Shown here: positions 8,693-36,557 of the stretch, piece after piece
Numbering within the stretch: position 1 is the stretch's first letter
Layout of the letters: every line of letters begins with the position of its first letter
NCBI GenBank assembly: GCA_965207375.1
Contig: OZ242274.1
Span: 704,001-768,000 of the forward strand
Length of the DNA stretch: 64,000 nucleotides
Origin: Nitrosopumilaceae archaeon
GTDB taxonomy: Archaea; Thermoproteota; Nitrososphaeria; Nitrososphaerales; Nitrosopumilaceae
Direction: 5' to 3'
The notes under the pieces: generated by a model
What the model saw: the letters and a program-made list of their open reading frames with translations, nothing else
What the model was told of the DNA's origin: nothing
The model's database searches: none
Program-made: the position numbers and the translations under genes

Positions 8693-10187
8693 GTACTTGT
8701 TCACCTATTTTTGAGCACTTTTGGCCCTAAATGTACCGAACCAGCTCTGCTAGATAATCCTGTCCCAGATTCTTCCAGGTAGTAACACACGTATACAGAT
8801 TGCCTCTACGCTCCATACTTTTTTCAGATCTGAGACATCCACGTATTCTCCTGCACACAACATACTCACGCAGGCTCTGCTCTGCAAGATTGCTTGTAGA
8901 TGGTATACGAGGGTCTATGACAAACCGGAACATGTCAGGTATGGCCCGTGACAGTTTTGCTACAAATTTACCCACAATTTCATCATTGGCATACCTTTTG
9001 ACAAGGTTACGTGTTCTTTTTTCCAATTGTACAGCATATGATTCTCTGTAATCAGGTGGTTTGTCTAGGACATGTTTGCCGTCATGGTATATCTTTTGTA
9101 GGCATTGCAGTGTATTTTTTGCAATTTTAGAATCTGGATTCTTTTGTGATATTGTTTTGATTTCACGTATTAGGTGCGCGTTACATCTCTGGATGATATA
9201 TCTGCGGTATGGAGGCCATCCGTCACAGGTTATGATTATATCTTGTGAGTCACCTATTATTTCCTTGAGTACGTTTGCTCCCCTGCTGGGATTAATTATA
9301 TAGAAATTCTCACTTGTAATTGGATTATGAAACGTCCACAACCATATAGTCTTTCCATGCAGTCGCTCTGATGTCTCATCTGCTATCAGAATCTCGGCTT
9401 CCTGTATCTTTTCTTTTATCTCATTTGCAGGCACAAATAACGCATCAGAGACTGTATCTATGATGTTTTGAATACCTCCTTCAGATATTTCGATTCCACG
9501 TCTTTTCATGGCCTCCTTGTTCATACGTACCGGCATGCGATGTATGTGGTTATCCATTATCTCCTTTATCACTTCATTTCCAAACTGACCTTTTTTTGGA
9601 ATGTCAACCTTTGGTGTAATGTCAGTAGCTCCACAGCAGTTGCAATGATACCCATGAATCTTGTGCTTGCAAGTACGTGGAGGAGGAGTTTTTACAATAT
9701 CAGTTATTATCCTGATTTTGGTGTCTGTATGGTGTATGTCTTGAGAACCACACTTGGTACACGTGTCTAATTTGTGCTCTTTTTCTTCATCTACTTTGAC
9801 CTTGCGGGTTACACCTGTGCGACCAGGTTGTCCTCCCTGTTTTTTTCCAGTAGATTTTTTGTTCTCTGCACGTATTTTGCGGTCCTGCTTGCGTGTAATG
9901 GAATCCTTAGATGGAGGAGTATTGGAATTGTCATGATAGTTGTCACGTTTGGTAAGCTCTTGAATTTTTTTATCTTTTTGTAGTAGGAGGTCATCTTTTT
10001 GTAATATGATTTTTTGTAAACTTGATACTAGAGATTCAAGAAGAAGGACTTTTCGGTGTTCCTTTTTGTATGCACTTTTCCAGTTGATGGTACTCATTAT
10101 ACAACTTGTGAGTCAGAATGATTTAGATCTGATGGTGATCAAAATTTGAACAAATGGTGAAATTTTAGGCACAACGTGAACAAGTAC
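8693..10187 (-). mobile_element. IS66-family element (single-ORF, ISBst12-like), 1495 bp
   Basis: TIRs GTACTTGTTCAC/GTGAACAAGTAC; 8-bp TSD CATCTTTT at 8685-8692 and 10188-10195. Confidence 0.95.
8727..10097 (-). CDS. IS66 family transposase
   Basis: NSNTPPSKD, GGQPG, CxxC zinc finger, ADET, CDGW, QRCNAHLIR, TSNLAEQSLR. Confidence 0.95.
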   Translation of the reverse strand: MSTINWKSAYKKEHRKVLLLESLVSSLQKIILQKDDLLLQKDKKIQELTKRDNYHDNSNTPPSKDSITRKQDRKIRAENKKSTGKKQGGQPGRTGVTRKVKVDEEKEHKLDTCTKCGSQDIHHTDTKIRIITDIVKTPPPRTCKHKIHGYHCNCCGATDITPKVDIPKKGQFGNEVIKEIMDNHIHRMPVRMNKEAMKRRGIEISEGGIQNIIDTVSDALFVPANEIKEKIQEAEILIADETSERLHGKTIWLWTFHNPITSENFYIINPSRGANVLKEIIGDSQDIIITCDGWPPYRRYIIQRCNAHLIREIKTISQKNPDSKIAKNTLQCLQKIYHDGKHVLDKPPDYRESYAVQLEKRTRNLVKRYANDEIVGKFVAKLSRAIPDMFRFVIDPRIPSTSNLAEQSLREYVVCRRIRGCLRSEKSMERRGNLYTCVTTWKNLGQDYLAELVRYI

Positions 10188-10759: not shown

Positions 10760-11734
10760 CTAATGAACAGCCTTTTTCATTAATTCAAAATCATTGTCAA
10801 TCATTGTTTCAACAAGCTTGTTAAAAGACATAGAAGGTTCCCAACCTAATTCATTTTTTGCTTTAGTCGCATCCCCTATCAGGGCATCAATATCTTGAGG
10901 TCGAAAATATTTTTTATCAGTTTCAACAAAATCTTCCCAATCCCCTAATCCTGAATATTTGAAAGCATATTCTAGAAAATCTTTTACGGAATAGGATTTT
11001 TTAGTAGCTATTACATAGTCAGATGGTTTGTTCTGTTGTAACATCAACCACATTGCTTTTACATAATCTCCTGCAAAACCCCAATCCCTCACAGCATTAA
11101 TATTTCCTAAAAATATTTTTTTTTCAAATCCATATTTTATTCTTGCAATATTGTATGTGATTTTTCTTGTAACAAATTCCAATCCTCTTAAAGGACTCTC
11201 ATGATTAAATAATATTCCACAGGATATGAACAAATTATATGCTTCTCTATAATGTTGAGCCATTTTATGGGCAAATACTTTAGAAACACCATAAGGACTA
11301 GCTGGATCCATTCGTGAAAGTTCATTTTTTATTTTATTAGAATTTCCAAACATTTCACTTGATGATGCCTGATATACTTTAGTATGAGAGCTGTATGCTT
11401 TAACTGCTTCAAATACATTTAATGCACCAATAGCATTAACATTTGTAGTAAGAATGGGTTGATCAAACGAAACTCCAACAAATGATTGTGCTGCAAGATT
11501 ATACAATTCATCTGGTTGAATGTTACTAATTGTTTTGTTAATAGAGATTGAATCCGTTATATCGGATTTGACGAGTTCAATTTTATCTAAAATAGCAAAA
11601 TGTTCTAATCGTTCAAATAAGCGATGACTGGTTCTACGAAAACCACCATATACTTTATAGCCTTTTTTAAGTAAAAAGTCTGCCAAGTAGGTACCGTCTT
11701 GTCCAGTTATACCTAAAATTAGAGCTGATTTCAT
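10760..11734 (-). CDS. gmd: GDP-mannose 4,6-dehydratase
   Basis: GITGQDG.YL, YNLAAQSFV, QASSSEMFG, SPYGVSK, ILFNHESPLRG.EFVTRK, RDWG. Confidence 0.96.
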   Translation of the reverse strand: MKSALILGITGQDGTYLADFLLKKGYKVYGGFRRTSHRLFERLEHFAILDKIELVKSDITDSISINKTISNIQPDELYNLAAQSFVGVSFDQPILTTNVNAIGALNVFEAVKAYSSHTKVYQASSSEMFGNSNKIKNELSRMDPASPYGVSKVFAHKMAQHYREAYNLFISCGILFNHESPLRGLEFVTRKITYNIARIKYGFEKKIFLGNINAVRDWGFAGDYVKAMWLMLQQNKPSDYVIATKKSYSVKDFLEYAFKYSGLGDWEDFVETDKKYFRPQDIDALIGDATKAKNELGWEPSMSFNKLVETMIDNDFELMKKAVH

Positions 11735-12570
11735 TTTATTATCAATCCGTTTTCAATCAGCTTGTCTAAAAAGTGTTTAAACCCTTTTCCTCCATGTTCA
11801 TGACCTTTCCAAACTTCAATTGCAAAACTTTTATCTTCAAGTTTATTTAACATAGGAATTATTTTTGTAAATGGCAAATCTCCTTCACCAAAAGCTAATC
11901 CTTCTCCTTCCGAACCTTCTGCATCTGAAAGATGATAGTGTGTCACATAATTTTTAATTTTATTTAATTCATCGATAAGAGATACATTAATTTTATTACA
12001 ATATAGTTGAGAATGGCATAAATCAAAACAAACATTCAAATTTGTTTCATTACAGTATTTTATCAAATCTTCAGATTGTAAAAAGACGTTACTATTCCAT
12101 CTGCCACCATAAAACCAAGCATAAGGTGGCATATTCTCAAGCAAAAAATTTACGCCGGAAATATCAAGTTGTTTAACTGAATCAACGATCATATTTTTCA
12201 TTTTTTGGATATTTTCTAATGATAAATCCTCAAGAGAATAACCACCAGGATGAACAATTATACTAGGTATGCCTCTAAAATGGTCTCCTAATTGAATTGT
12301 TTTGTCAATTGCTTTTTGAATCAATTCTATACTAGTTTCTTTTGAATGAATTTGACTGGTTTCTTCCAAAGCGACAAAATCAACAATTTTTCTATCAAAA
12401 TATTCGTAGCAATGTACAATCAATTGTTGTTCAAAATTTGAATCTAATTCAAGATTGAGATCACTGTCAGAAAAGTGAAATTCCAATATTTTTGGATTAA
12501 ATTTCATCATGTCTACTATGTCATGTTTACGAACTTTCATTCCTAAGATCATTTTAACAAAACATTTCAA
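11731..12570 (-). CDS. Xylose-isomerase/AP-endonuclease-2-like TIM barrel protein (NeuB-associated)
   Basis: IVHPGG, LENMPPYAWFYGG, CFDLCHSQL, HLSDA, EG...GEG, EVWKGH. Confidence 0.8.
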   Translation of the reverse strand: MKCFVKMILGMKVRKHDIVDMMKFNPKILEFHFSDSDLNLELDSNFEQQLIVHCYEYFDRKIVDFVALEETSQIHSKETSIELIQKAIDKTIQLGDHFRGIPSIIVHPGGYSLEDLSLENIQKMKNMIVDSVKQLDISGVNFLLENMPPYAWFYGGRWNSNVFLQSEDLIKYCNETNLNVCFDLCHSQLYCNKINVSLIDELNKIKNYVTHYHLSDAEGSEGEGLAFGEGDLPFTKIIPMLNKLEDKSFAIEVWKGHEHGGKGFKHFLDKLIENGLIIK

Positions 12571-12879
12571 ATTACGTTTTATTTATATTGTCAAAATAAC
12601 AGTTAACCCACCAACAATGCAAAATCCTTTGCAATATGGGCAGAGGTGCAGGTTTGATCTAAAATTCTAACATAAGGACAAAATTGAACTAAACGTAGCA
12701 AATTAGATTCCATATCATTATGAGCAAACCAATACAACCGCACTATGAATTACAACTCACTGATTGGATGCGTACTGTGAGTTTTGGCCCAAGATTCTCA
12801 ATCATGTAGTATTATCTAGTTTTGATTCCCCTCTTTTCATATGAGCCTTGTTTGGACTGCTTTTTGATGAATGTCGTTA

Positions 12880-13959
12880 CTAGTGATCTACTGGTGGATT
12901 AACTGTAGTTGAATTCATATCTTCCTCTAGCAGATAATCTCCTTTTCTAATTTTTCGTGAAGATTTTCTTCCAATCATATCGTAAAAATATTGTGCCGAT
13001 AATCCTTTATCTGGACCTTTAACATCCATGTTTTCTTCTGAAAAAAGTTCACCTTCATCAATATCAGACAAACAAACTATACTCTTTGAGATCACTTCTC
13101 TTTGTAAAACTTCTGCACGTGTCATTTTTTTGATTGGTTTACCTTTTGCTTTTTCAGATAGTCTAATCATGGTAACTAATTTTTCGAATTCGTTTGGTTC
13201 CAAAGATGATGAATGATCCAAGCCTTTCATTTTTTTATCAAGAGTGATATGACGTTCTATGATTGTAGCACCAATATTTGCAGCAGTTAAACTTCCTATA
13301 ATACCTGTTTCATGATCACTAAATCCTACCTGTACATCAAATTTTTGTCTAAGTACAGGAATTAAATTAACATTTAGTGATTCAATAGGTGATGGGTAGG
13401 TACTATTTGCATGAAGTAAAATAAATTTTGCATCTAATTTTTTTACAAAATTAACCATTTTTTCTACTTCTTCAATTCTTGACATTCCTGTTGATATTAT
13501 CATAGGCTTTCCTGTTTTTGAGACGTATTTTATTAATGGAAAATTTGTCATATCTCCTGATGAAATTTTATATGCTACTATTCCAAGATTCTCTAAAAAA
13601 TCAACGCTTGGAATATCCCATGGAGTGCACAGAAACGTAATTTTTCTTTTTTTACAATAATTAAAAATATCAAGATAATTTTCATTACTTAATTCTACTT
13701 CTTTTAATTCTGCAAGTAATATTTCAAAACCTTGACTTTCAGAATTTGGATTTTCTAATGCATGTTTTCTGTACAAGCTTTCAAGGTTTCTTTTTTGGAA
13801 TTTTACAGCATCAGCACCTGATTTAACGGATTCGTCAATTAATTTTTTTGCAACAGACACATTACCGTTATGATTTATTCCAATTTCTGCAATAATATAA
13901 CAGGGATGATCCAAACCGATCATTTTATTTTCAATACTTATAGTGTTATCAAATTCCAA
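12880..13959 (-). CDS. neuB: N-acetylneuraminate (nonulosonate) synthase family with SAF domain
   Basis: IIAEIGINHNG, AVKFQKR, KISSGD, LHANSTYP, GFSDHE, IERHITLD, GLDH. Confidence 0.93.
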   Translation of the reverse strand: MEFDNTISIENKMIGLDHPCYIIAEIGINHNGNVSVAKKLIDESVKSGADAVKFQKRNLESLYRKHALENPNSESQGFEILLAELKEVELSNENYLDIFNYCKKRKITFLCTPWDIPSVDFLENLGIVAYKISSGDMTNFPLIKYVSKTGKPMIISTGMSRIEEVEKMVNFVKKLDAKFILLHANSTYPSPIESLNVNLIPVLRQKFDVQVGFSDHETGIIGSLTAANIGATIIERHITLDKKMKGLDHSSSLEPNEFEKLVTMIRLSEKAKGKPIKKMTRAEVLQREVISKSIVCLSDIDEGELFSEENMDVKGPDKGLSAQYFYDMIGRKSSRKIRKGDYLLEEDMNSTTVNPPVDH

Positions 13960-16795: not shown

Positions 16796-17566
16796 TTAAT
16801 TTCTTTCCTTGGGATCCTTTAATGTCAAATCAGTCATTTTATTCTTAAAATTTTTTTGCCATCTTTCATCAATACCGTCAATAATTTTTATTAAATGTGG
16901 TTGATGTTCAAACAATGTAATTATATCTTTTAAATGAAAATCATTTCCTATAGAATGGAATATTTTTTTGGCTAATTCATAATCTTCCTCATAATCTAAA
17001 GTTAGACGTAATTTTTTAAAGAGTTTCATATCTTTTTTAGGTTTAATGTACGTGCAATTAAAAATATTAGTTTGTGTAAAAAATTCTCTATAACCAGTTT
17101 CAGTATTATTAGACATTTTAATTTTACAAATTTTTTCCAATGCTGTTCGCGTAACACCAACAGGAACAAATCCATGAGGAAATCCATCACTTGTTATAAA
17201 ATCAGCATTTGTTTTTTCATATTCTTCAATTACTCTATCTATGAAGTAAGGATCAGTGTAAATATCATCTCCATCAACAACAACAGCAAAATCAATTTTG
17301 AAAAAAGTTGCTGCATCTCGTAATCGAATTAATATATCATGTTCATTTCCTCGAAAATATTTAATATTTTGTCTTTCTAAAAAAGATATCAATAGGTCAT
17401 CACTTTTTTTCTCAGTAGTACAAACAATTAGATTTTGAACTCTATTAGATTTTTGAAGACGACTTAACAGATATTGGATTATAGGCTTATCATTAACTAC
17501 TTTCATAGCTTTTCTTGGCAATCTAGAGCTATCTAACCTAACTAGCAGAAAAATACCGTAATTCAT
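16796..17566 (-). CDS. SpsF-like cytidylyltransferase (CTP_transf_3)
   Basis: RLDSSRLPRKAM, FRGNEHDIL.R, DGDD, LRLTLDYEED. Confidence 0.88.
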   Translation of the reverse strand: MNYGIFLLVRLDSSRLPRKAMKVVNDKPIIQYLLSRLQKSNRVQNLIVCTTEKKSDDLLISFLERQNIKYFRGNEHDILIRLRDAATFFKIDFAVVVDGDDIYTDPYFIDRVIEEYEKTNADFITSDGFPHGFVPVGVTRTALEKICKIKMSNNTETGYREFFTQTNIFNCTYIKPKKDMKLFKKLRLTLDYEEDYELAKKIFHSIGNDFHLKDIITLFEHQPHLIKIIDGIDERWQKNFKNKMTDLTLKDPKERN

Positions 17567-18048: not shown

Positions 18049-19464
18049 ATGAATAAAATAGATCTAAAACAATTAGAGACATACTTATCAGATTTATTTC
18101 CGATTTGTAGAAGCATAACCGGAAACGGGGTTAGAGATACATTAGAAAGACTAAACGAAATTGCAGAATTTCAAATAAAAGAAATTCCTTCTGGAAAAGA
18201 ATGTTATGATTGGACCATACCTAATGAATGGAATATTTTTGATGCATATGTTGAGAATTCAAAAGGAGAGAAAATCGTAGATTTTAAAAAAAATAATCTG
18301 CACCTAGTAAATTACAGTATTCCTATTGATGAAATAGTTTCTTATGAAGAATTACATGAGCATATATACACACTGCCTGATTTGCCTGATGCTATACCAT
18401 ATAGAACATCATATTATAAAGAGGATTGGGGATTTTGTTTGTCACACAACCAATTATCCAAATTAAACAAAGATGAAAAATTTCATATCAAGATAGATGC
18501 TACACTCAAACCTGGAAAATTAACCTATGGAGAATTTTTAATAAATGGAAAGTCTGATAAGGAATTTTTGTTTTCCACGTATTGTTGCCATCCTTCTTTA
18601 GCTAATGATAATTTATCCGGACCGCTATTATGGACTTATTTATTGAAAAAATTACAAAACCAAGAACCCCATCATAATTATCGATTCATCATTGTTCCAG
18701 AAACAATCGGAGCAATAGCCTACCTGCATCAAAATGAAAAGATCATGAAGGAGATCAATGGCGGATTTATTCTCACTTGTGTTGGAAGTCCAAATAATTT
18801 TAGCTATAAAAATACAATTGACGGAAATGATCCAATTGACAAAATTGTTTATAACGTTTTTGACAATAAAGGAATCAATCCCATTTCCTATCCTTTTGAT
18901 GTCAATGGAAGTGATGAAACACACTATTCTGCTCCATTTTTTAGAATTCCAATCGGTACTATTTGCAAAGATAAATACTATGAATTTCCATATTATCATA
19001 CATCCTTTGATGATCTTGACTTTGTGAAACCAATACACATTGAAGAAACTTATAGAATTTATGAAAATGTTCTTGAAAATATAGAATTAAAATTTGAATC
19101 ACTTCAAGCACTAGGGAAAAATCATGTTAAAATAAATGCAAACGAAGAGATATACACTTCGTTGCATCCTTACTGTGAACCCATGCTAAGCAAAAGAGGA
19201 CTGTATCCTACAATTGGCGGTAAAATAAAACAACAGGTAGAAAATATTGAAACAGAGCATCTACAAAGAAATTACAAAATTGATAAAAATACAGTCACAT
19301 CAGGAACAGAATTAGATTCTATCGGATGGTTGATGCTATTAAGTGATGGAATGACTAGCATTTCTGATATTTCTAAAAGAATAAAAATCTCAGAAGATAT
19401 TCTAAAAAAAGTTGCACAAAAATTGGTCAGTCATAATTTATTAAAAGTAAGGAGCAAATCATGA
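18049..19464 (+). CDS. DUF4910/DUF2172 aminopeptidase-like polysaccharide biosynthesis protein with C-terminal HTH
   Basis: LFPICRSITGNGVR, DWTIPNEW, AIPYRTSYY, CHPSLANDNLSG, GSDE, YHTS.D, CEPMLSKRGLY. Confidence 0.88.
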   Translation: MNKIDLKQLETYLSDLFPICRSITGNGVRDTLERLNEIAEFQIKEIPSGKECYDWTIPNEWNIFDAYVENSKGEKIVDFKKNNLHLVNYSIPIDEIVSYEELHEHIYTLPDLPDAIPYRTSYYKEDWGFCLSHNQLSKLNKDEKFHIKIDATLKPGKLTYGEFLINGKSDKEFLFSTYCCHPSLANDNLSGPLLWTYLLKKLQNQEPHHNYRFIIVPETIGAIAYLHQNEKIMKEINGGFILTCVGSPNNFSYKNTIDGNDPIDKIVYNVFDNKGINPISYPFDVNGSDETHYSAPFFRIPIGTICKDKYYEFPYYHTSFDDLDFVKPIHIEETYRIYENVLENIELKFESLQALGKNHVKINANEEIYTSLHPYCEPMLSKRGLYPTIGGKIKQQVENIETEHLQRNYKIDKNTVTSGTELDSIGWLMLLSDGMTSISDISKRIKISEDILKKVAQKLVSHNLLKVRSKS

Positions 19465-20252
19465 GGATCATAATTATCACAGGAAACCATCCTAGACATC
19501 TATTTTTCTTAAATTCAATCCACAAAAAGTATTCACTATCAGGAATGATTCTTCAAAGAAGAGAGAATATCATTCCTGAGCCAGATAAAGAACTAGAGCA
19601 AATTGATAAAGAAAATTTCATAAAGCATTTTCAAAATCGCCAAAAGACAGAAGCAAGTTATTTCGACACTACCACAATTCCCTCAATAAACAGACTAGAT
19701 GTAACAGATGAATCTTTAAACAGTGAGAAAAGTGCCAGATTTGTCAAAAAAATTAATCCAAATGTAGCTTTGATTTTTGGAACTAATTTGATCAAAGAGC
19801 CATTGTTTTCAGCATTGCCAAGACATGCAATCAATCTTCATTTAGGATTGTCACCTAGATACAGAGGTTCTGCCACATTATTTTGGCCATTTTATTTTAT
19901 GGAACCGTCATATGTAGGAAGTACATTTCATTACATCATAGAAGAACCAGATGCAGGAAATATCATTCATCAATCTATACCCCAATTAGAAATAAAAGAT
20001 GGAATTCATGATGTAGCTTGTAAAACAGTAATTCAATCCTCTAAAGATATTATAAAATTATTGGAAATTTTTGAAAGACATGGAGGGTGGAAAATTTTTA
20101 AACAAAAAGGTACAGGAAAAAATTTTCTTGATAGTGATTTTAAACCACAACATCTCAGAGTAGTGTATAATATTTTTAATGATCAACTAGTAAAAGAATA
20201 TCTTACAGGTAATGTATCATGTAAAATACCACGACTATTTAGGCAATTCTAA
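19461..20252 (+). CDS. Formyltransferase family protein (sugar N-formyltransferase)
   Basis: INLHLGLSPRYRG, GSTFH...DAGNII. Confidence 0.85.
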   Translation: MRIIIITGNHPRHLFFLNSIHKKYSLSGMILQRRENIIPEPDKELEQIDKENFIKHFQNRQKTEASYFDTTTIPSINRLDVTDESLNSEKSARFVKKINPNVALIFGTNLIKEPLFSALPRHAINLHLGLSPRYRGSATLFWPFYFMEPSYVGSTFHYIIEEPDAGNIIHQSIPQLEIKDGIHDVACKTVIQSSKDIIKLLEIFERHGGWKIFKQKGTGKNFLDSDFKPQHLRVVYNIFNDQLVKEYLTGNVSCKIPRLFRQF

Positions 20253-21876: not shown

Positions 21877-22563
21877 ATGTATAATAATAAACAGGTATTA
21901 TGCTTGATTTTGGCTAGAGGAGGATCAAAGGGAGTTCCAAGAAAAAATATAAAAATTTTACACGGCAAGCCACTCATTAAACATAGCATAGACGTAGCAA
22001 AACAAACAGCATACATTGACAAAATTTTTGTATCTACAGATGATAAAAAAATTAAAGAAATTTCCATGAATGCAGGAGCATCCGTAATTGATCGTCCATC
22101 AGAATTAGCATCGGATTCAGCAGAATATCTTCAGGCTGTTAAACATATGTTAGGATCGATTAAAGCCAAACCTGATTCTATGATTGTTTTGCTTGAAGTT
22201 ACCTTACCAATTAGAAAAATGACAGATGTCAAAAATTGTATCGAGTGTTTTAACAGCAACGTTGACTGTGTAGTTTCGGTCATGGAGGCAAAAGTTCATC
22301 CAGGATTCATGTTCAGATCAAAAGGAGATTTATTAGTACGATATGATGAAACTATAAATCTAAAAAACAGACAAGAAATGGAAAAACTTTATGCGTATAC
22401 TGGTTCCATTCTTGTAACAAATGTAAATTTTTTACAAAATCAAGATTCCGTTGTTTTTGGAGGAAGAATGAAGGGTTATTTACTTGATGAAAAAAGTTCT
22501 CTAGACATTGATAGCCCTTTTGATTTTGACATGTGTGAATTTGTTTTGAATAGTTACAAATAA
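21877..22563 (+). CDS. neuA: Acylneuraminate cytidylyltransferase
   Basis: ILARGGSKGVPRKN, GKPLI, VSTDD, RPSELASD, RQ, SLDID...DF. Confidence 0.93.
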   Translation: MYNNKQVLCLILARGGSKGVPRKNIKILHGKPLIKHSIDVAKQTAYIDKIFVSTDDKKIKEISMNAGASVIDRPSELASDSAEYLQAVKHMLGSIKAKPDSMIVLLEVTLPIRKMTDVKNCIECFNSNVDCVVSVMEAKVHPGFMFRSKGDLLVRYDETINLKNRQEMEKLYAYTGSILVTNVNFLQNQDSVVFGGRMKGYLLDEKSSLDIDSPFDFDMCEFVLNSYK

Positions 22564-22823: not shown

Positions 22824-23705
22824 ATGAATATCCTTGTGGGCATTCCTGCATTTAATGAGGAAAAAAATATTGCAAAAATAATAATCAAATTGCAGAAAAT
22901 TACCGATAACATCATAGTTTGTAATGACGGTTCCAAAGACCTTACAGCAGAAATTGTTGAAAAGCTTGGCGCCAAAGTAATTAATCATGAAAAAAATTTG
23001 GGATATGGTGCAAGTATAAGAAGTATTTTTCTCAAAGCCAAGGAGATGGATTTTGATGTATTAGTTACCTTTGATGCAGACGGTCAGCATAGAATTTCAG
23101 ATATAAAACCGATAATTCAACAAATAGAGAATAATCAAGCAGATATCGTGATTGGTTCAAGGTTTCTAAAGGAGAAAAACGATGTTCCAAAATTCAGAAA
23201 ATTGGGAATCAAGACGATTACTTCACTAACAAATGCATCTTTGGATAAAACCATCACGGATTCACAAAGTGGTCTTCGAGCTTATAGCAAAAAGGTCGTA
23301 AGAGAAATTACCCCAGCAGAGAGTGGAATGGGCGTATCAACTGAGATTCTGATAAAAGCAAACAAAAAAGACTTCAAGATAGGCGAAGTGCCCATAGTTG
23401 TATCATATGAGGGAAAGACATCAACGCACCATCCGGTATCTCATGGAATTTCAGTGGTTGCAAGTACTTTAAAATTCACATCAATTGAGCATCCATTGAA
23501 ATTTTATGGAATTCCAGGGGTAATTTTTCTAACGGTGGGGTTGTTTTTTACCATCTGGACAATTCAGGGTTTCACTGAAACAAGACAGATCATAACAAAT
23601 GTTGCAATAATTGGAATAGGTACTACGATTCTAGGATCTCTGTTAATTGTGACTTCCATCATGCTTTATTCCATAGTTACGGTGGTGAGGGAAAAACACA
23701 GTTAA
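22824..23705 (+). CDS. GT2 glycosyltransferase (dolichol-phosphate sugar synthase-like) with C-terminal TM helices
   Basis: IPAFNEE, NDGSKD, NLGYG, FDADGQH, IGSRF, TDSQSG.RAY. Confidence 0.92.
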   Translation: MNILVGIPAFNEEKNIAKIIIKLQKITDNIIVCNDGSKDLTAEIVEKLGAKVINHEKNLGYGASIRSIFLKAKEMDFDVLVTFDADGQHRISDIKPIIQQIENNQADIVIGSRFLKEKNDVPKFRKLGIKTITSLTNASLDKTITDSQSGLRAYSKKVVREITPAESGMGVSTEILIKANKKDFKIGEVPIVVSYEGKTSTHHPVSHGISVVASTLKFTSIEHPLKFYGIPGVIFLTVGLFFTIWTIQGFTETRQIITNVAIIGIGTTILGSLLIVTSIMLYSIVTVVREKHS

Positions 23706-23840
23706 CTTGGAATTTATTCAAACGTTGTAAGTGTTAACCTGATCACTTGTAAATTCTTCGGGGTCATATGGACAGTATGGACCGACCACTTGAAACTCAT
23801 GATGCTCAGAACTCACGTTCTTCCTTGTCAGATTATCAAA

Positions 23841-25010
23841 TTATTTTGGATCCGATACGTCATCACCTAACTGATCAATTGCTGCAAGAGTATTTGTTTT
23901 TTCCATCCATGAAATAAGTTGTTTTTTCAAACTTTTTTCGATTTGAGGGTTTGAGCCTATTATATTATTATTTTCTCCTGGATCTATTTTCAAATTATAT
24001 AATTGCCATTCATTATTATGTTTGTTAAAAATCATCTTATAATCCAAATTTTTAATACAAAAAATGTTTGGTTCTTTTGGAGAAGGATATGGTCCTTGTA
24101 GTGCTCCCGTCTCAGAAAATACCATTTCTTTATCATCTAATTTTTCTTGTTCATTAAATAAAAACTTGGAAAAACTCTTTCCAGGTAACTCTATTTTTTC
24201 TAGATTTATTAAATCCAGAATGGTTGGGAAGATATCAATTGTTTCTCGTAAACTAGAACATATTCTGTTTTTAACAATCTTATTTCCAATAAATAGATAA
24301 AATGTTCTTATCGTTTCTTCAAAAGTAAATGATCCATAATTTCTTTCACCAAATCTTTCACCAACTCCTGTTCCATGATCTGAAAAAAATATTATTATGC
24401 TTTCATTATCTAAAGCCATATTGTTAATTGTATTATAGATTAATTCCGAATACTCCCCAGCTTCTCGAAAAACTTGATCATAATTGAGCAAATTTTTATC
24501 TTTCTTATCATAAAATCGTTTATCGTTCCATTCATATTTTTTTAATACTTCAGATACGGTAACAGTATGAATTCTAGTAAAATGAAGAAAAACAAACAAA
24601 GGTTTTCCCTTTGAATTTTCTTTACATGTTTTCAAAAAATCTGAATGTCGTTTTCTTAAATCATCATTAAACTCATCGTGAAATTGATGAATATTAAATC
24701 CTCTTTTTGAAATAATTTTATCTGAAAGTAAGTCACATGCTGTAAAATATCCTGCACGGTTTAAAATTTCAGGCAGTATCTTTATCGAATCTTTGAGCCT
24801 AAACATCTTGTAATATGCATCAATTCCATTATCCTTTCCATATAATCCTGAAAAAGTCACATTTACAGAACCAATTGTATATGGTATAGCTGTATTTACA
24901 TTATTCATCAAGGTGCCGTTTTTCATTAGTTTGACAAAATTAGATGATTGTTCAATTCTATCAGCTCTAGCTCCATCAAGTAAAATTAATATAATATTTG
25001 GTCGTTTCAT
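23841..25010 (-). CDS. Sulfatase-like hydrolase/transferase (alkaline phosphatase superfamily, Thr nucleophile)
   Basis: RPNIILILLDGARAD, PYTIGS, FSDHG, DIFPTILD, LYNL..DPGE; no CxPxR motif. Confidence 0.82.
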   Translation of the reverse strand: MKRPNIILILLDGARADRIEQSSNFVKLMKNGTLMNNVNTAIPYTIGSVNVTFSGLYGKDNGIDAYYKMFRLKDSIKILPEILNRAGYFTACDLLSDKIISKRGFNIHQFHDEFNDDLRKRHSDFLKTCKENSKGKPLFVFLHFTRIHTVTVSEVLKKYEWNDKRFYDKKDKNLLNYDQVFREAGEYSELIYNTINNMALDNESIIIFFSDHGTGVGERFGERNYGSFTFEETIRTFYLFIGNKIVKNRICSSLRETIDIFPTILDLINLEKIELPGKSFSKFLFNEQEKLDDKEMVFSETGALQGPYPSPKEPNIFCIKNLDYKMIFNKHNNEWQLYNLKIDPGENNNIIGSNPQIEKSLKKQLISWMEKTNTLAAIDQLGDDVSDPK

Positions 25011-25807
25011 TTCAAATCCTCCAAATTTATAAATTCTGAAATTTTATTTGAATTAAATAATTCATTATAAATTCTATAATCTTTTTTTGAATCCAATTCC
25101 AACCATCCATTATTTACAAATACGGGTGTTATTTTTTGATTGTCTTTAATTAGTCCTTGTAAAAAGTCGGTCATGTAAGATTTCTCAAATGGCATTTTAT
25201 CAGTTAAAGGGTTTATTCCTTCAGTGCGTGACTTTTCCTTACATTTTTTGTAAAATGTTTGAAAATTTTTTATTCCTTTTCCCTGTATTTTAATTAGTCC
25301 AATAAATTGTCCTTTAATTTCTTTAATATTGTCAGTTTTTTGACCTATATCTGAAATTTTGCCATCGTTGTCAATTTGAAGAGTTTCAGCGTCATCTAAA
25401 GGATTCTCAAATCTGATTTCCCACAATTTTCTCCAATCTTGATCTATGACTACTGAAATATCTTCATTAGTTTCCATTAATTTTTTTATTATTTTTTTTT
25501 CATAAATTATATCTCCATAAGAAATTATTATTGATTCATCAAATTCCTCTTCTGCATAAAAAAGTGTCTCCACCATGTTTGTTGAGTTATATTTTTCATT
25601 AAAATAATATTTAACATCTTGAAAATTTATTTTTTCTTTTTGGTAACCTCGAACTATACAAATTTCATTTATTCCTAATTTTTTAAAAACATTAATCTGC
25701 ATTTTTAAAATTGTTTCTCCAAATAATTTTATCATACCTTTTGGATTTTCATTTGTTAATGGCCACAATCTTTTACCCTCACCAGCTGCTAAAATTATGA
25801 CTTTCAA
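25007..25807 (-). CDS. Nucleotidyltransferase (LicC/Cj1416-like cytidylyltransferase)
   Basis: ILAAGEGKRL.PLT...PK, VRGY, TNMVETL, SYGDI, FIGLIK, YMTDFLQ, WLELD. Confidence 0.88.
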   Translation of the reverse strand: MKVIILAAGEGKRLWPLTNENPKGMIKLFGETILKMQINVFKKLGINEICIVRGYQKEKINFQDVKYYFNEKYNSTNMVETLFYAEEEFDESIIISYGDIIYEKKIIKKLMETNEDISVVIDQDWRKLWEIRFENPLDDAETLQIDNDGKISDIGQKTDNIKEIKGQFIGLIKIQGKGIKNFQTFYKKCKEKSRTEGINPLTDKMPFEKSYMTDFLQGLIKDNQKITPVFVNNGWLELDSKKDYRIYNELFNSNKISEFINLEDLK

Positions 25808-25808
25808 T

Positions 25809-26468
25809 TTATTTTACTTGCAATTTATTTTCTAAAAACTTTTTTAATAATGATGTGTTTCTTTCTCTTTCTGGATGCCACATTACTCCCATTATTGGTA
25901 AACTCTTGTGAATAAATCCTTCTATTGTATTGTCTTTTTTATGAATGGCAAATGAAATCAATGATTCTCCAACATCTTCAATATTAATTATATTGCGATG
26001 ATAAGAATTCACAATTATTTTGTTTTGTTTTAACAATTCACTAATTGGTTTATTTAAAATTAATACTTGATGTTTTTTCCTTATGTGTTCATCATTGTTA
26101 CCGCGTCTTATTTTTCCACCAAAAAATTTATTCAATACCTGCATGCCTCTACAAACACCAAATATCGGTAATTTATGTCCTATCCCAAACTCGATGATTT
26201 CTCTTTCAGTACAATCTCTATCAATATTATCTCCAATATCATCGCCTCCTGATAATATTATTCCATCTATGTTTAAACTCTCTAGAAATAGTGATACATT
26301 TGAGAGATTATTAGGAATCATGACGGGAATCATTTTTATCGTGTCCAAAAATCTAGTCCAATCCTGAGACAGAGCATCTCTTTTTTCTTCATATCCTTTA
26401 GCATCAACAATTCTTGTTGAAATTCCAATTTTTCCAAATGATTTCTTTACATCATTATTTTGTGTCAA
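25809..26468 (-). CDS. Class I glutamine amidotransferase/peptidase C26 (Cj1417-like gamma-glutamyl-CDP-amidate hydrolase)
   Basis: YEEKRDALSQDW, ILSGGDD, GVCRGMQ, VNSYH, GVMWHPER. Confidence 0.88.
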   Translation of the reverse strand: MTQNNDVKKSFGKIGISTRIVDAKGYEEKRDALSQDWTRFLDTIKMIPVMIPNNLSNVSLFLESLNIDGIILSGGDDIGDNIDRDCTEREIIEFGIGHKLPIFGVCRGMQVLNKFFGGKIRRGNNDEHIRKKHQVLILNKPISELLKQNKIIVNSYHRNIINIEDVGESLISFAIHKKDNTIEGFIHKSLPIMGVMWHPERERNTSLLKKFLENKLQVK

Positions 26469-26490
26469 GATCTTGTTCCTTTTTAGAATT

Positions 26491-28896
26491 TTATTTAATA
26501 TATCCTAATGTTTTTAATGTTATTTTTTCTTCGATAAATTCATCTAAAAATTTTTGTGTCAAAATTATGATTTGTTGATTTTTACAATCAAGCATTATTT
26601 TAGATGTATTAATAATTTTTTCATATAATATTTCTCCACAACCTATTGCAGCTGGCATGTCTACTTCAGAACATCTAATGGACATGTGTGATGCAACTCC
26701 ACCGTATTTTGTTATTAACCCTTTGAAATTTTTTGTAAATAACCAATCATAACCCGGATCAGCATTTTCTAACAACACAATTTTATTTTGAACGTCAATA
26801 TTTCTTAAGTTCTTTTTAATATGGATAACATTACCTATAATTTTTTTACTTGATATAAAATTAGGTTTTGAATAATAATGTTGAATTATATCAAAATCTT
26901 CTTCTGATTTAATGATTGGGGGTAAAACTAAACTTTCTTGCTTTCTTTTTACATTAATCTGTTTTTTTATAGATATTTTCCATTTTTTAATTAGCTCGTT
27001 TTTTGATAATTTTTTATAATTATCTAAAATTGATGTGATACTTAAATTTGACATTTCATCTCTTTTAAAACCTAGCATCTTTCCAGCCTTTGCAATTAAT
27101 TCCAGAGAATCACTTAGGTTTTTTGTAAATTCAAATTTTAATTCTTCTCTCTGTACAAGTGATATTTTTAAAAGTTCTTGAAAATCTTTCCAGTTTGTTT
27201 CTAAACCATGTTTTTTAAAATCTATTTCTATTCTTTTAATATTTGGTTTTTTCTTTTTTCTTGCTTCAAGTAGATTTATGTTTTCAAAATAATTATTTTT
27301 ATCATATCTTGATGAAGTAATATCATATGTTCCAGGTCTTAAATGACCATATTTTTCTAAAAATTCTTTTTTGCTGATTAGTCTTTTTGTGTATAATTCG
27401 TAGTCGTTTTTAAATTTAGTTAGTGGGCTTTGTATTGTTAGCATTAAATTTTCATAGTAATGCATATCAATAAATCCTGTTTTTATCAAACTTTTTAATA
27501 TTATTGTTCCTATGAATGCAATTCTAGCCATCGTTGAAAATGGAAGTGTTCCATTTTTTTTACAGTCTTTGAGAATTTTTTCCGCAGCCTGAAGATAATC
27601 CACATATCTCTTTTTTGATATGTTAAGATTTTTTTCTATTTTTTTTCTATTTTTAGATAAATTCTTAATAGAATTAGTAGCTTTATTTGAAATATTTTCA
27701 AAATTTACAAATAAATTATTTGTTAGTTGTAAAATGGCCTGTTCTATTTCATCAACCTCTTTAACAGAAAAATTATGATTTTTTAATTCTTGTAATCGTT
27801 CCTTGATTAAAAAATCATAACAGGACAATAGAATTTCAAATTCAACTTTATCATGAAATTCTGGATTTCTTTCTAATTTCATTAGATAAAATTTTAATAG
27901 TTTTTTTCTTAGTTCTGCATTTATTGATTTTGGAATCATTGAATTGAAACTTGTAACAAGATCTATGTATGGTTTGTTTCCAAATCTATACATTAATGAT
28001 TTTGGAAAAGTATCTTGATATCCTAAAATTTTTCTACCAGTAATCCATTCCGATTTTAATAATAAATAATTATACAACGAATAATCTAAAAGATTTGGAT
28101 TATTTCCTATAATTTCTGATGGATTCCAATCTGCCATGTCCGAAAATATATTTTTAAAATTATATTTTGATGATTTTACAATTTTATTATATTTTTTCTT
28201 GTTTTTATTTATTATATTTACAATGTCTTTTTCTAAAATTTGATTTTTATTTTTTATAAAAGTTATGGGTCTAATTTGAAAAATTATTATTTGGTTTGAT
28301 TTTGTGATTGCAAATTCAATATCTAATGAATGTTTTGGGAAAATTTTCTCTATTTCTTTTACTGATTCAATTAATTTTTTAAATTTTAGATCAATTTTTG
28401 AAGTATACTTATGAAAAATATTTACATTTTTACTAATTCCACCTTTTGTAACGGTATCTGTAGAATTTCCGTCGTCATAATTTATTACATAGTATGGTTT
28501 TCCATCATTTTCTGTTTTTGTAAATATTACTCCACTTCTAACAACATTTGATGTCTGATTTTGAACTAAAATCTGGTTATTTTTATTAAAATTTCCTTTT
28601 TTATTGTATGATATAATAATTTTGTTTATTGCAGCTTTTATGTCATTTTTTGATTTAGATGATACATTCAAGATGCTTTGGTAGCTACCTGCTTGGGAAT
28701 TATTTATTGAATCCTCTCCCATCGCTGAACTTCTTATAATTATTTTTGAATGAAAATTTGTTGTAATTTCTTTAATAACTTTTATTGAATTATTCTCCCA
28801 CTCTAAAACTGTAAAATAAAAAATTTTTTCAATTTTAGATTTTTTTAATATTTTTTGTAAATAAATTAATACATTTGCTTTAGATGAAAATTCCAT
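26491..28896 (-). CDS. PEP-utilizing/PPDK-like kinase (Cj1418-like L-glutamine kinase)
   Basis: IRSSA..ED...SQAG, DIEFA..QIRPI, M.DWNPSEIIG, HDKVEF, YGHLRPGTYDI, ADPGYDW, phospho-His motif YGGVASHMSIR. The ORF is open to 29004; MEFSSK at 28896 is the likely start. Confidence 0.88.
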   Translation of the reverse strand: MEFSSKANVLIYLQKILKKSKIEKIFYFTVLEWENNSIKVIKEITTNFHSKIIIRSSAMGEDSINNSQAGSYQSILNVSSKSKNDIKAAINKIIISYNKKGNFNKNNQILVQNQTSNVVRSGVIFTKTENDGKPYYVINYDDGNSTDTVTKGGISKNVNIFHKYTSKIDLKFKKLIESVKEIEKIFPKHSLDIEFAITKSNQIIIFQIRPITFIKNKNQILEKDIVNIINKNKKKYNKIVKSSKYNFKNIFSDMADWNPSEIIGNNPNLLDYSLYNYLLLKSEWITGRKILGYQDTFPKSLMYRFGNKPYIDLVTSFNSMIPKSINAELRKKLLKFYLMKLERNPEFHDKVEFEILLSCYDFLIKERLQELKNHNFSVKEVDEIEQAILQLTNNLFVNFENISNKATNSIKNLSKNRKKIEKNLNISKKRYVDYLQAAEKILKDCKKNGTLPFSTMARIAFIGTIILKSLIKTGFIDMHYYENLMLTIQSPLTKFKNDYELYTKRLISKKEFLEKYGHLRPGTYDITSSRYDKNNYFENINLLEARKKKKPNIKRIEIDFKKHGLETNWKDFQELLKISLVQREELKFEFTKNLSDSLELIAKAGKMLGFKRDEMSNLSITSILDNYKKLSKNELIKKWKISIKKQINVKRKQESLVLPPIIKSEEDFDIIQHYYSKPNFISSKKIIGNVIHIKKNLRNIDVQNKIVLLENADPGYDWLFTKNFKGLITKYGGVASHMSIRCSEVDMPAAIGCGEILYEKIINTSKIMLDCKNQQIIILTQKFLDEFIEEKITLKTLGYIK

Positions 28897-29099
28897 ACAA
28901 TGTGATATTTTTCTTGATATATCATTGTTTTTTGATTTGAAGACTCGCCAGCAAATACAGAATCCTATACAATATAGCGATGTAGGTAAATTCTTGTACA
29001 GCAACAGTATATTCTATTACACCGAAATCATTTCGCCTCGATCCACCACTAGAACTACGCCATGGTGGTTATCATGTGTTCACAATGTTAACCCTTACG

Positions 29100-30473
29100 T
29101 TATAGGTATCCAAGTTTTTTTAATTCATCTTCTACTTTTTTACGTTCGTCATCGTCTAGTATCGAATGAGAATTAGTTTTTTCATCAAGGTATTTTTGCA
29201 AGATTCCTTCCATTTCAGAAACGAGTTCCTTGTTTGAAGACGAAATATCATATTCTTCTAGGGGATCATTGATCAAGTCAAATAGTTGACAGTTTCTTAT
29301 ATCATCATTATCTCTAAAATATTTGAAACGCTCTGTCCTTATTCCGGCTGACTGTTTTTCTGCCTTGGAAATATGAGGCATACTTTGAATATACAGAGGT
29401 TTTTTGTCTATCCCATGTCCTGAAAACAGAGGAATCAAACTAGTTCCATCAATTTTGGAGTTTAAAGGTTCTAGGCCCAAAATCTCTGTAATTGTGGGCA
29501 TAATGTCAATTAATCCTATTTGCCGAGATATTATTTTGTGTTCAGAGATTCCAGAACCGCTCATAATCAGAGGTACTTTGAGAACATCATCAAAGACATG
29601 GCTTCCTGCACTCATTCTAGAACCGGTCAAAACGCGTTTCTGATATCTTGATAACTGTAAATTCTTGATCTTTTTTTCTCTGTTTAATTCTCTAATTTTG
29701 TGTAAAATGGATGAAATCCTTCTTTTTGGGCCATACAAAGATGGTGGAATTTTATTGCCCATCTTCCAGAGCAGCTGCTCTTCGGCATCTGATTCCAAAT
29801 TGACATACTTGCCGTTGATCTTCATTGAACGGACGTATTCTCCATGATCTGCAGAAAGTACTATGATAGTTTTCTTTTTGTCAATTTGAGTTAAAAATTT
29901 TCCAATCCAGATGTCAATTGCAGAAACCATTCTTTCATAGTCTGTTTGGCCAAATTTTTCTTTATCAAAATCTTTTGGGACTATTATGGGCTGATGTAAA
30001 TCGTTAATATGAATATAAAAAAACCAAGGTTCTTTGATTGATGATTGTAGTTTTTTTAGAATTTTTTCTCCCAAACCATCAAACAGGCTATAATAATTAT
30101 TATGACCTGATGATTCGAGTTTTAATTCAAAGTCATCATCTAGTCCTAGAATTGATCCGACACCTGATGTTGCAGCAAAAGTAAGATATCCATGATTTTT
30201 AAAATGTTCAATATAGGTAGGAATAGACGAATCTAACTTTTCATATCTTGCATCACTCATACCTATTCTGAATGGAAATTTTCCGGTAAACATACTGCTT
30301 ATCGAGGGAGTGGTGGATGCTACACAGCTAATTGTTTGGGGAAAAAAGATTCCGGTTTCTATCAAAGAGTCAATATTTGGCGTCAATGATGTTTTTGTGT
30401 CCCCAAAACACATGTCAGAACGAAAAGAGTCAATCAATAAAAAAAAGACATTTTGTTTCATTACCATTCCCAT
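29100..30473 (-). CDS. Sulfatase-like hydrolase/transferase (Thr nucleophile)
   Basis: LLIDSFRSD, TPNID, STTPSISSMFTG, ADHGE, VPLI, DIMPTI, LFDL.NDP.E, LKKLGYL. Confidence 0.85.
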   Translation of the reverse strand: MGMVMKQNVFFLLIDSFRSDMCFGDTKTSLTPNIDSLIETGIFFPQTISCVASTTPSISSMFTGKFPFRIGMSDARYEKLDSSIPTYIEHFKNHGYLTFAATSGVGSILGLDDDFELKLESSGHNNYYSLFDGLGEKILKKLQSSIKEPWFFYIHINDLHQPIIVPKDFDKEKFGQTDYERMVSAIDIWIGKFLTQIDKKKTIIVLSADHGEYVRSMKINGKYVNLESDAEEQLLWKMGNKIPPSLYGPKRRISSILHKIRELNREKKIKNLQLSRYQKRVLTGSRMSAGSHVFDDVLKVPLIMSGSGISEHKIISRQIGLIDIMPTITEILGLEPLNSKIDGTSLIPLFSGHGIDKKPLYIQSMPHISKAEKQSAGIRTERFKYFRDNDDIRNCQLFDLINDPLEEYDISSSNKELVSEMEGILQKYLDEKTNSHSILDDDERKKVEDELKKLGYL

Positions 30474-35744: not shown

Positions 35745-36557
35745 TCATTTTTTAGCAAAGATCATGCCTAATTTTTCATCAGTTGGCAGAATTTCCAATT
35801 GAAACTTGTGTTCTATCAATTTGTTTTTTAACGATTCAAATCTTGCATCCTTACTATTCTTTAAATGATACTCCAGACACATGTTTTCAATTTTTTTTAG
35901 GATTTCATCAGAAAGGCTCTCTATTATATCATATTCGGAGCCTTCGCAATCTAATTTTAGAATCGAAATTCTCTCAATGTGGTTTTCATCAATTATGTTT
36001 TCTAAGGTAGTCGTGTCAATTTTTTCCTTTCTGCCTGATTTTTGCACAAGACTGTGTGCTGATTGATCTTCGGATAGGAAAATTTCTCCCTTTTCAACCC
36101 TATTGCTTACTGCAGAATTGCAAATTCGTACGTTTTCTAATAAATTATTTGAGATGTTTTCTTTTAACAAATTAAAGTTGTCTTTGACAGGTTCAAAACA
36201 AAAAATTTTTGTTTTCGGGCTTTTTTGAGAAATGTACATGGCATACAATCCTATGTGTGAACCAATATCTAGAACCGGTCCCTTGTCTTGTGGAATAAAC
36301 CCCCTTTGATTATATTCTTCCAACAGCCACACATTTGCAAATGCCTGGATATCCGTAGAGTTGTTTCGTATTTTTATTTTTATTCCTCTTCTAGTTTCCA
36401 AAACTGAATACATGTCATTTTTTTGGTTGCAATAAATAGAGATTAATTCTCGCCAGTTCTTGAGAATCTTTATTGATTTTAGCATTAATGAAAATTTTGA
36501 AATTTTTCTTTTTTTCACAATATTGCTTCCTGTGTTCATTATATATTGATAAATCAC
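35745..36557 (-). CDS. FkbM family methyltransferase
   Basis: VLDIGSHIG, CFEP, ILKLDCEGSE, LEYH. Confidence 0.9.
   Translation of the reverse strand: MIYQYIMNTGSNIVKKRKISKFSLMLKSIKILKNWRELISIYCNQKNDMYSVLETRRGIKIKIRNNSTDIQAFANVWLLEEYNQRGFIPQDKGPVLDIGSHIGLYAMYISQKSPKTKIFCFEPVKDNFNLLKENISNNLLENVRICNSAVSNRVEKGEIFLSEDQSAHSLVQKSGRKEKIDTTTLENIIDENHIERISILKLDCEGSEYDIIESLSDEILKKIENMCLEYHLKNSKDARFESLKNKLIEHKFQLEILPTDEKLGMIFAKK

Follow-up and report, generated by a model that had tools for sequence, protein, structure and literature searches.

The locus, the trio and the acquired core

The present analysis concerns five genes found in a window of 64,000 nucleotides (nt) from a Nitrosopumilaceae archaeon, in which three genes related to those of phosphoramidate donor synthesis in Campylobacter jejuni are placed together with two genes for sulfatase-like proteins. 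All coordinates correspond to positions within this window, and genes are read from the minus strand unless stated otherwise. The five open reading frames (ORFs) occupy 23841-30473, are co-directional on the minus strand and encode, in this order, sulf2, a kinase, a class-I glutamine amidotransferase (GATase) homologue, a nucleotidyltransferase (NT) and sulf1; kinase, GATase and NT are hereafter called the trio. The features considered are the following:

23841-25010, minus strand: sulf1, S1-sulfatase-fold protein (PF00884) in which Thr45 replaces formylglycine; last gene of the acquired cassette
25007-25807, minus strand: NT, LicC-like nucleotidyltransferase, candidate CTP:phosphoglutamine cytidylyltransferase (Cj1416-like)
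25809-26468, minus strand: GATase, class-I GATase/Peptidase_C26, candidate gamma-glutamyl-CDP-amidate hydrolase (Cj1417-like)
26491-29004 as ORF, likely 26491-28896, minus strand: kinase of the L-glutamine kinase family (Cj1418-like), NF004508
28897-29099, no strand: intergenic stretch containing the upstream boundary of the AT-rich cassette, placed from the sequence and the per-gene guanine-plus-cytosine (GC) content
29100-30473, minus strand: sulf2, second Thr-type sulfatase-fold enzyme (PF00884), a resident gene of the island
22824-23705, plus strand: family 2 glycosyltransferase (GT2; Glycos_transf_2), conserved flank on the downstream side of the head-group slot, whose content varies
35745-36557, minus strand: FkbM-family methyltransferase (PF05050), weakly linked candidate for O-methylation of the phosphoramidate

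An earlier note on this DNA, written from its letters without database searches, had described a tightly spaced and co-directional kinase, GATase and NT with one sulfatase-like gene overlapping downstream and another one upstream, and this layout agreed with the coordinates and with the ATGA in which NT and sulf1 overlap. GATase and NT are separated by 1 nt, kinase and GATase by 22 nt, and sulf2 and kinase by ~95-200 nt, the kinase probably starting at M37 (28896) because the family model and the homologues of ~802 aa begin there. The motifs quoted in that note (YGHLRPGTYDI, GGVASHMSIR, PYTIGS and STTPS) were all found in the translations.

According to two studies (PMC11800397, PMC6429109), glutamine is N-phosphorylated, cytidylylated and then deglutamylated in C. 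jejuni, yielding cytidine diphosphoramidate (CDP-amidate). The assignment of the trio to the corresponding Cj1418, Cj1417 and Cj1416 families, already proposed in the earlier note, is supported by sequence comparison, most clearly for the kinase. The kinase reached 819 bits on NF004508 (cut-off 501), aligning with model positions 9-788 of 789, presented the Pfam domains PPDK_N and PEP-utilizers, and its GGVASHM histidine was invariant across 14 aligned homologues. NF045546, which models gamma-glutamyl-CDP-amidate hydrolases, was the best NCBIfam match of the GATase, whose translation carries the GVCRGMQ and WHPE motifs and keeps the Cys/His/Glu motifs. NT is LicC-like, harboring the NTP_transferase and NTP_transf_3 domains and having LicC (1jyk) as its best match in the Protein Data Bank (PDB).

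It could be argued that, in this clade, the kinase family phosphorylates a different amide or another substrate altogether, in which case the decoration would not be a phosphoramidate. The divergence of the trio would agree with this, since the kinase is ~29-41% identical to those of bacterial survey loci, including Helicobacteraceae, the GATase scored 122 bits on NF045546, under the equivalog cut-off of 250, and no Cj1416-specific NCBIfam model matched NT. Nevertheless, an end-to-end match of the kinase to NF004508, well over its cut-off, a three-gene order conserved from Helicobacteraceae to archaea, and the preservation of the catalytic His and of the GATase motifs make a different head group improbable.

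The kinase family is broadly distributed, with >1000 homologues, some of them carrying the JGI name 'glutamine kinase', and a presence in no fewer than 619 species genomes, drawn from many phyla of bacteria and archaea. Among sampled genomes of the host's class it is rare (9/401), being found in 8/223 genomes of the host family, in 0/177 of other families and in 0/3 other genomes of the host's genus. Gene neighborhoods were surveyed in 164 pooled loci (78 from genomes, 80 from metagenomes and 6 from genomes of the family, after removal of two duplicates), many of which are mutually related. The kinase-GATase-NT order was kept in most of them, in bacteria and archaea, a GATase homologue following the kinase in 144 and an NT homologue being present in 140.

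Two side observations were made in this survey. In several bacterial loci (L038, L040, L041, L043, L046-L051, L078 and others) the kinase was ~1000 aa long, with an N-terminal extension giving weak NT-like matches, and many loci of this kind presented a TagF-like gene directly after NT and no CysC-like gene nearby. Moreover, Formyl_trans_N-like genes clustered near the trio in 20/78 genome loci, the window copy being located at 19461-20252; in two loci of the family (L094, 7462-8151; L097, 5394-6083) such a gene was found beside a sulf1-like gene and a gene for a ~195-aa protein without known identity.

The host genome (4.3 Mb, 38% GC, 99.95% complete) exceeds most others of its family two- to threefold in size, these being mostly of 1-2 Mb. 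The host is taken as an ammonia-oxidizing archaeon because archaeal small-subunit rRNA and archaeal AmoA were found and McrA was not found in it. The window corresponds to a large glycan island, in which two NeuB genes are accompanied by glycosyltransferases, several cytidylyltransferases, a PMT-like membrane protein and a flippase-like gene, and transposases are scattered among them. In this island, the core at 23841-29004 presented 25.4% GC against a contig mean of 38.2% (standard deviation 2.2) and was the lowest-GC 5-kb window of the contig, the 20 lowest such windows all falling within the glycan island; the note's remark that the core is more AT-rich than its neighbors was thus borne out. 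Gene by gene, the GC content was 23.3% for the kinase, 25.3% for NT, 27.9% for sulf1 and 28.8% for the GATase, and the island background was seen in sulf2 (34.2%) and GT2 (35.7%).

The closest relative of the core was found in a 4.8-kb metagenome contig of 24.2% GC (L119), which harbors kinase, GATase, NT and sulf1 arranged as in the window, with an identical NT/sulf1 overlap and amino acid identities of 70, 69, 70 and 77%, respectively. On this basis, the acquired unit comprises these four genes, with sulf2 lying outside. Low GC, rarity in the class and the match to L119 at 69-77% altogether support the horizontal acquisition of an AT-rich four-gene core, as the earlier note had suggested, with sulf2 and GT2 as resident flanks. 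A scan of 23300-29600 for flanking repeats returned AT-rich low-complexity pairs only and no insertion scar.

Thr-type sulfatase-fold proteins as partners of the trio

The AlphaFold model of sulf1, built from a 26-sequence alignment, presented a pLDDT of 88.3 and a pTM of 0.90, and the Foldseek matches listed for it were all S1 sulfatases (TM 0.67-0.79). The residues at the formylglycine site are T-I-G-S-V: in the sulf1 profile, T45 aligned with the formylglycine Cys of 6hr5 and with the same position in 7stt, and the Arg of CxPxR was lost. In sulf2, TTPSI aligned with C-S-P-S-R of 6pt6/6ptk. Both proteins lack the C/S-x-P-x-R motif, and these alignments confirmed the Thr at the nucleophile site that had been noticed in the sequence. 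The C-terminal subdomain SGSH_C is common to S1 sulfatases and to the sulfatase-fold enzymes of the window. Eight residues (D12, R15, D17, T45, H148, D211, H212 and K325) were invariant in 26 sulf1-like sequences, and the nucleophile column, as read in 115 of the best 150 sulf1-like matches, held 109 Thr, 5 Ser, 1 Ala and no Cys, with DHG kept. This family is small, with 67 cluster representatives at E ≤ 1e-30 among 1.84 billion proteins.

No 19-residue segment above 1.6 on the Kyte-Doolittle scale was observed in sulf1 or sulf2 (a PMT-like control protein had 51 of them), nor did either present a signal-like N-terminus. For these reasons, both proteins are probably cytoplasmic, where nucleotide-linked donors are found. 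The parallel with LtaS/EptA-type phosphotransferases drawn in the earlier note was corrected accordingly, in favor of soluble, cytoplasmic proteins of the S1-sulfatase fold. Of six multi-domain sulf1-like members examined, two were fused to a cytidylyltransferase, three to an S-adenosylmethionine-dependent methyltransferase and one to an adenosine 5′-phosphosulfate (APS) kinase.

The association of these genes with the trio was observed well beyond the window. A sulf1-like gene was found in all nine kinase-bearing genomes among the 401 of the class. In the eight besides that of the window, it was placed directly after NT in six and 2 kb off in one; in the remaining genome, the contig breaks off within NT, the sulf1-like gene being located on a different one. 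Among 21 metagenome loci with kinases at least 48% identical to that of the window, a sulfatase-like gene was present in 18, and the contigs of the other three stop at NT. The same linkage was seen in metagenome-assembled genomes labelled Nitrospina, Woesearchaeota, Pacearchaeota and Methanosarcinales. Linkage of Thr-type sulfatase-fold genes to the trio is strong across homologous clusters, and the possibility, raised in the earlier note, that it might prove absent there did not materialize.

In the 164 loci, the partner genes found near the trio were distributed as follows:

CysC-like: 54/164 loci
sulfatase-like (≥100 bits): 36/164 loci
TagF-like: 35/164 loci
CDP-alcohol-phosphotransferase-like: 17/164 loci
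sulfotransferase-like or DUF2972: 13/164 loci
none of these: 47/164 loci

A survey for trios accompanied by a sulfatase-like gene without cysC had been recommended in the note, and a CysC-like gene was present in 1/36 sulfatase-linked loci. In 11/13 loci with a sulfotransferase-like or DUF2972 gene, a CysC-like gene was also held, and a TagF-like gene came directly after NT in 12/78 genome loci. The canonical set was recognized in L063 (Helicobacteraceae), in which the trio is accompanied by two methyltransferases, one CysQ-like and one CysC-like gene, and a DUF2972 protein matching NF058596 ('O-methyl phosphoramidate transferase') in hmmscan; its GATase reached 238 bits on NF045546. In the window, no TagF-like, CDP-alcohol phosphotransferase, sulfotransferase-like or APS-kinase gene was found, and in the whole genome no match to DUF2972, NF058596, Sulfotransfer_1 or Sulfotransfer_3, although the DUF2972 search recovered the protein of the L063 genome as a positive control. 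An AAA_33 P-loop protein (51322-51801) was considered as a stand-in for Cj1415 and rejected, for it had no APS_kinase match, gave only two weak matches to CysC-like proteins and is located 22 kb off, beyond a transposase.

A slot shared with phosphonate cassettes

The strongest comparison for the locus, absent from the earlier note, is with the phosphonate (methylphosphonate-type) clusters of related archaea. At E ≤ 1e-10, sulf1-like genes were found in 24/401 genomes of the class, 15 of which lack the kinase. Sixteen further copies were retrieved, two of them being second copies in kinase-bearing genomes, and a weak match in G089 was left out. Fourteen of the 16 adjoin genes for phosphoenolpyruvate (PEP) mutase (Ppm), a split thiamine diphosphate-dependent decarboxylase (Ppd), a LicC-like NT and an iron-dependent alcohol dehydrogenase (Fe-ADH), as called by Pfam and NCBIfam on L105 and by BLAST to L105 at the other loci; the other two adjoin neither module. 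The 25 sulf1-like copies examined in the class comprise eight linked to the trio, 14 linked to phosphonate genes, two linked to neither and one (G393) on a separate contig. The NT of the window shares 30-35% identity with its counterparts in the phosphonate cassettes.

A 455-aa HTH_3 protein, for which no NCBIfam model exists and which is a putative methylphosphonate synthase (MpnS), was found in nine of the 14 phosphonate cassettes. It was absent in L108, L109, L111, L112 and L116, which keep Ppm, Ppd and Fe-ADH and may therefore install hydroxyethylphosphonate instead of methylphosphonate. In L116, the phosphonate-linked sulf1-like gene (8364-9487) is interrupted by a TAG codon in frame.

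In a maximum-likelihood tree of 26 sulf1-like proteins, a single branch (support 100/98) parted 12 phosphonate-linked from 12 trio-linked members, a split that shows clustering and not independent events, since the rows share labels by kinship. In a FastTree tree of sulf2-like proteins, trio-linked and phosphonate-linked members were interleaved, and the closest relatives of sulf2, 61-62% identical, flank phosphonate cassettes in L102 and L108. The GT2 of the window is likewise 59-68% identical to GT2 proteins encoded beside trio or phosphonate cassettes (L094, L099, L101, L108 and L109). In L108, a phosphonate cassette is located between a sulf2-like gene (62%) and a GT2 gene (68%), and the same flanks enclose the phosphorus-nitrogen (P-N) cassette in the window. 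No homologue of Ppd or of the 455-aa MpnS-like protein was found by tblastn in the window's genome. One match of the PEP_mutase family in that genome (C1:282565) was considered as the trace of a hidden phosphonate cluster and rejected, being 29% identical to cluster Ppm and having no Ppd or 455-aa partner genome-wide.

We read this as a swap of head-group cassettes, phosphorus-carbon (P-C) against P-N, at one island slot between sulf2 and GT2, because sulf1 splits by context and sulf2 does not, L108 shares the flanks, and Ppd and the 455-aa protein are lacking from the genome. Accordingly, the earlier view that both sulfatase-like genes bracket a P-N system was retained for sulf1, which belongs to the cassette, but not for sulf2, a resident gene whose relatives flank phosphonate cassettes. 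A study of methylphosphonate gene neighborhoods (PMC9381506) includes 'arylsulfatase A' among the neighbors and records the authors' suggestion of phosphonate esters on polymers. A literature search tying MpnS/methylphosphonate synthase (Nitrosopumilus maritimus) to sulfatases retrieved nothing relevant.

Other genes of the region may be mentioned. Two NeuB and two CTP_transf_3 cytidylyltransferase genes (4743-5795, 12880-13959, 16796-17566 and 21877-22563) suggest two nonulosonic-acid pathways, whose sugars are possible P-N acceptors; in L102, homologues of these genes, at 52-67% identity, adjoin the phosphonate cassette. An IS66-family transposase and two DDE transposases (8727-10097, 47991-49127 and 58898-59830) are placed within the low-GC island or at its edges. 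Downstream of the island, several genes (53870-54286, 55066-55809, 56248-58816 and 62653-63345) look like those of defense or mobile elements, encoding a PIN-domain protein, an HFX_2341/CARF-like protein, an AAA ATPase with an S8 subtilase after it, and a DprA-like protein whose neighbor is weakly PRTase-like.

Proposed transfer step and comparison with known systems

These observations are best accommodated, with a probability that we put at about 0.5, by an acquired P-N cassette sitting in the slot of phosphonate cassettes, in which sulf1 transfers the phosphoramidyl group from CDP-amidate in a kinase-free manner. On the model of the homologous enzymes of C. jejuni, the kinase would phosphorylate the amide nitrogen of glutamine, NT would turn the phosphorylated glutamine into CDP-L-glutamine, and the GATase-like hydrolase would free glutamate, leaving CDP-amidate. 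From the genomic context we infer that the phosphoramidate is transferred by sulfatase-like enzymes: sulf1, soluble and cytoplasmic, would use CDP-amidate directly, without 3′-phosphorylation, its metal-site Thr45 would attack the terminal phosphorus with CMP as the leaving group, and the phosphoramidyl group would then move to a sugar hydroxyl of a glycan built by the island. CMP-methylphosphonate, which is near-isosteric, would be the donor for the sister clade of sulf1, and sulf2 would act as a second enzyme indifferent to the head group, which may serve another acceptor site or processing step.

The group may also be O-methylated by an FkbM-type enzyme, of which a copy is found 5 kb away in the window. 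The presence of this gene, reported in the earlier note, was verified, and FkbM genes adjoin the kinase in L099/L003, L098, L078 and L073 and lie ~4.6 kb off in L016 and L035; the NanM-like methylase proposed along with it was dropped, as no NanM-like domain was detected in Pfam scans of 59 ORFs of the window.

More broadly, and more tentatively, Thr-type soluble S1-sulfatase-fold enzymes may constitute a new class of cytoplasmic transferases for CMP-activated phosphoramidate and (methyl/hydroxyethyl)phosphonate onto surface glycans. As part of this wider and equally tentative proposal, the 3′-kinase and sulfotransferase-like steps of Campylobacter might be unnecessary where sulf1-type transferases are found.

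Some evidence, gathered in this and the next two paragraphs, weighs against transfer by sulf1. All solved relatives of sulf1 are hydrolases, namely S1 sulfatases and phosphonate monoester hydrolases, and Thr-nucleophile enzymes of the alkaline-phosphatase superfamily include hydrolases, such as the NPP-type phosphodiesterases, so that a Thr by itself is no sign of transfer. To our knowledge, no transferase of this superfamily uses a nucleotide-linked donor. The score of the GATase under the NF045546 cut-off counts on the same side. Fold, PDB relatives and the precedent of NPP enzymes would all suit an explanation in which the trio makes CDP-amidate, another protein attaches the group, and sulf1 and sulf2 work as phosphodiesterases or monoesterases in the trimming, removal, proofreading or recycling of the head group or of a nucleotide by-product. 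A TagF-like gene is indeed found in 4/36 sulfatase-linked loci, and in L093, where it comes right after the sulf1-like gene, it could encode the real transferase. Such an explanation is nonetheless rather unlikely, given that the window holds none of the transferase genes sought there, that a hydrolase of the pathway's own product, coupled or fused to NT, would be wasteful, and that sulf1 is the best-conserved gene of the cassette (77% against L119).

The proposed absence of 3′-phosphorylation has its own exceptions. CysC-like and sulfatase-like genes occurred together in 1/164 loci (L133; Fisher p = 1.9e-6), a p value that overstates the independence of their mutual exclusion because many surveyed loci are related. 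In L133, the CysC-like gene (920-1441) was located 4.6 kb upstream of a kinase-GATase-NT-sulf1 operon. In L098, a CysQ-like Inositol_P gene and an FkbM gene (11043-11864 and 11934-12812) were placed directly upstream of the trio kinase, with no CysC-like gene detected in 20 kb, and in P0164 a sulf1-like domain is fused to an APS-kinase domain. These three cases indicate that the kinase-free rule is not absolute and that 3′-phospho nucleotides may matter in some variants.

Moreover, the single APS kinase of the genome is encoded ~135 kb off the cassette, next to a CysQ-like gene and in a housekeeping neighborhood, and this pair could act in trans. The statement of the earlier note that neither a Cj1415-type kinase nor dedicated transferases are visible thus held for the window, and for Cj1421-like proteins in the genome, but has to be qualified by this distant kinase. 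An arrangement may be envisaged in which the housekeeping enzyme 3′-phosphorylates CDP-amidate, an unrecognized transferase follows and the sulfatase-like genes serve another purpose; the CysQ-like neighbors, here and in L098, and the P0164 fusion would fit it. APS kinases, however, are family-wide (98/101 genomes with any match and 72/101 at 150 bits or more, counts that include G432, G433 and G173 and become 95/98 and 71/98 without them), as opposed to 8/223 for the trio, the genome lacks the DUF2972, NF058596 and sulfotransferase families, and CysC-like genes are nearly absent from sulfatase-linked loci, which leaves an action in trans with little probability.

According to PMC6429109, Campylobacter is the only case in which phosphoramidate on glycans has been demonstrated biochemically, and a preprint on Borgs mentions in passing Cj1416-18-like genes in an archaeal element. 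In our literature search, no paper was found joining phosphoramidate with Nitrosopumilus or diphosphoramidate with sulfatase. The present locus places the donor-making trio in ammonia-oxidizing archaea with a different, simpler-looking transfer module, which is common to the phosphonate clusters thought to give rise to methylphosphonate in the sea and, through it, to aerobic methane. If sulf1 transfers the phosphoramidyl group, a function would be assigned to the 'arylsulfatase' genes that have long been observed next to the phosphonate genes of archaea, and a testable candidate would be at hand for a missing step, in which glycans receive their P-N and P-C head groups. A P-N surface decoration would then be predicted in abundant marine archaea, some of which would display phosphoramidate where their relatives display methylphosphonate, and marine organic phosphorus would include an unrecognized P-N pool.

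Five kinds of known systems can be compared with this locus. The first is the O-methyl phosphoramidate (MeOPN) system of C. jejuni (Cj1415-Cj1422), in which, according to PMC11800397, Cj1415-Cj1418 make CDP-phosphoramidate 3′-phosphate and deletion of Cj1421 or Cj1422 abolishes MeOPN on particular sugars. The window presents a kinase of the same family and candidates for the other two trio families, in the same gene order. Two features that define the MeOPN pathway are lacking, a Cj1415-type 3′-kinase in the cluster and an NF058596/DUF2972 transferase in the genome; in their place, NT is translationally coupled to a gene for a Thr-type sulfatase-fold protein. Moreover, the window comes from an archaeon, in which the S-layer or an envelope glycan, and not a capsule, is the probable target. 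Kinase-free variants of the trio accompanied by TagF-like or CDP-alcohol-phosphotransferase genes also lack CysC-like genes, and their partner families use CDP-linked donors, whereas the partner in the window is of the sulfatase fold, for which no use of nucleotide donors is known.

As to enzyme families, sulf1 has in common with S1 formylglycine sulfatases and phosphonate monoester hydrolases the fold and the metal site (D12, D211 and H212), and differs from S1 sulfatases in the lack of C/S-x-P-x-R, with Thr for Cys and the Arg lost, and of a signal peptide. With LtaS, EptA/MCR-1 and OpgB it has in common PF00884, the Thr nucleophile and the Asp and Asp-His metal ligands, and the chemistry proposed for sulf1, a covalent phospho-Thr followed by transfer to a hydroxyl, is likewise of the LtaS/EptA type. 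Enzymes of the LtaS/EptA/OpgB group are anchored in the membrane, draw on lipid donors and have an extracytoplasmic site of action. The multi-pass membrane domain of LtaS/EptA is lacking in both sulf1 and sulf2, and no LtaS or EptA was among the matches listed by sequence or fold; sulf1 and sulf2 are not relatives of LtaS/EptA, and the shared Thr is an analogy.

The closest counterpart is found in the Nitrosopumilus-type phosphonate clusters (Ppm, split Ppd, Fe-ADH, the 455-aa HTH_3 protein, NT and 'arylsulfatase'), which present the same module of NT with sulf1-like and sulf2-like genes, the same island position and the same flanks. These clusters use Ppm, Ppd, ADH and the putative MpnS where the window has a glutamine kinase and a GATase, and the sulf1 of the window falls in a clade separate from their sulf1-like proteins. 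Their donor, CMP-P(O)(O-)-CH3, would be near-isosteric with the CMP-P(O)(O-)-NH2 predicted for the window.

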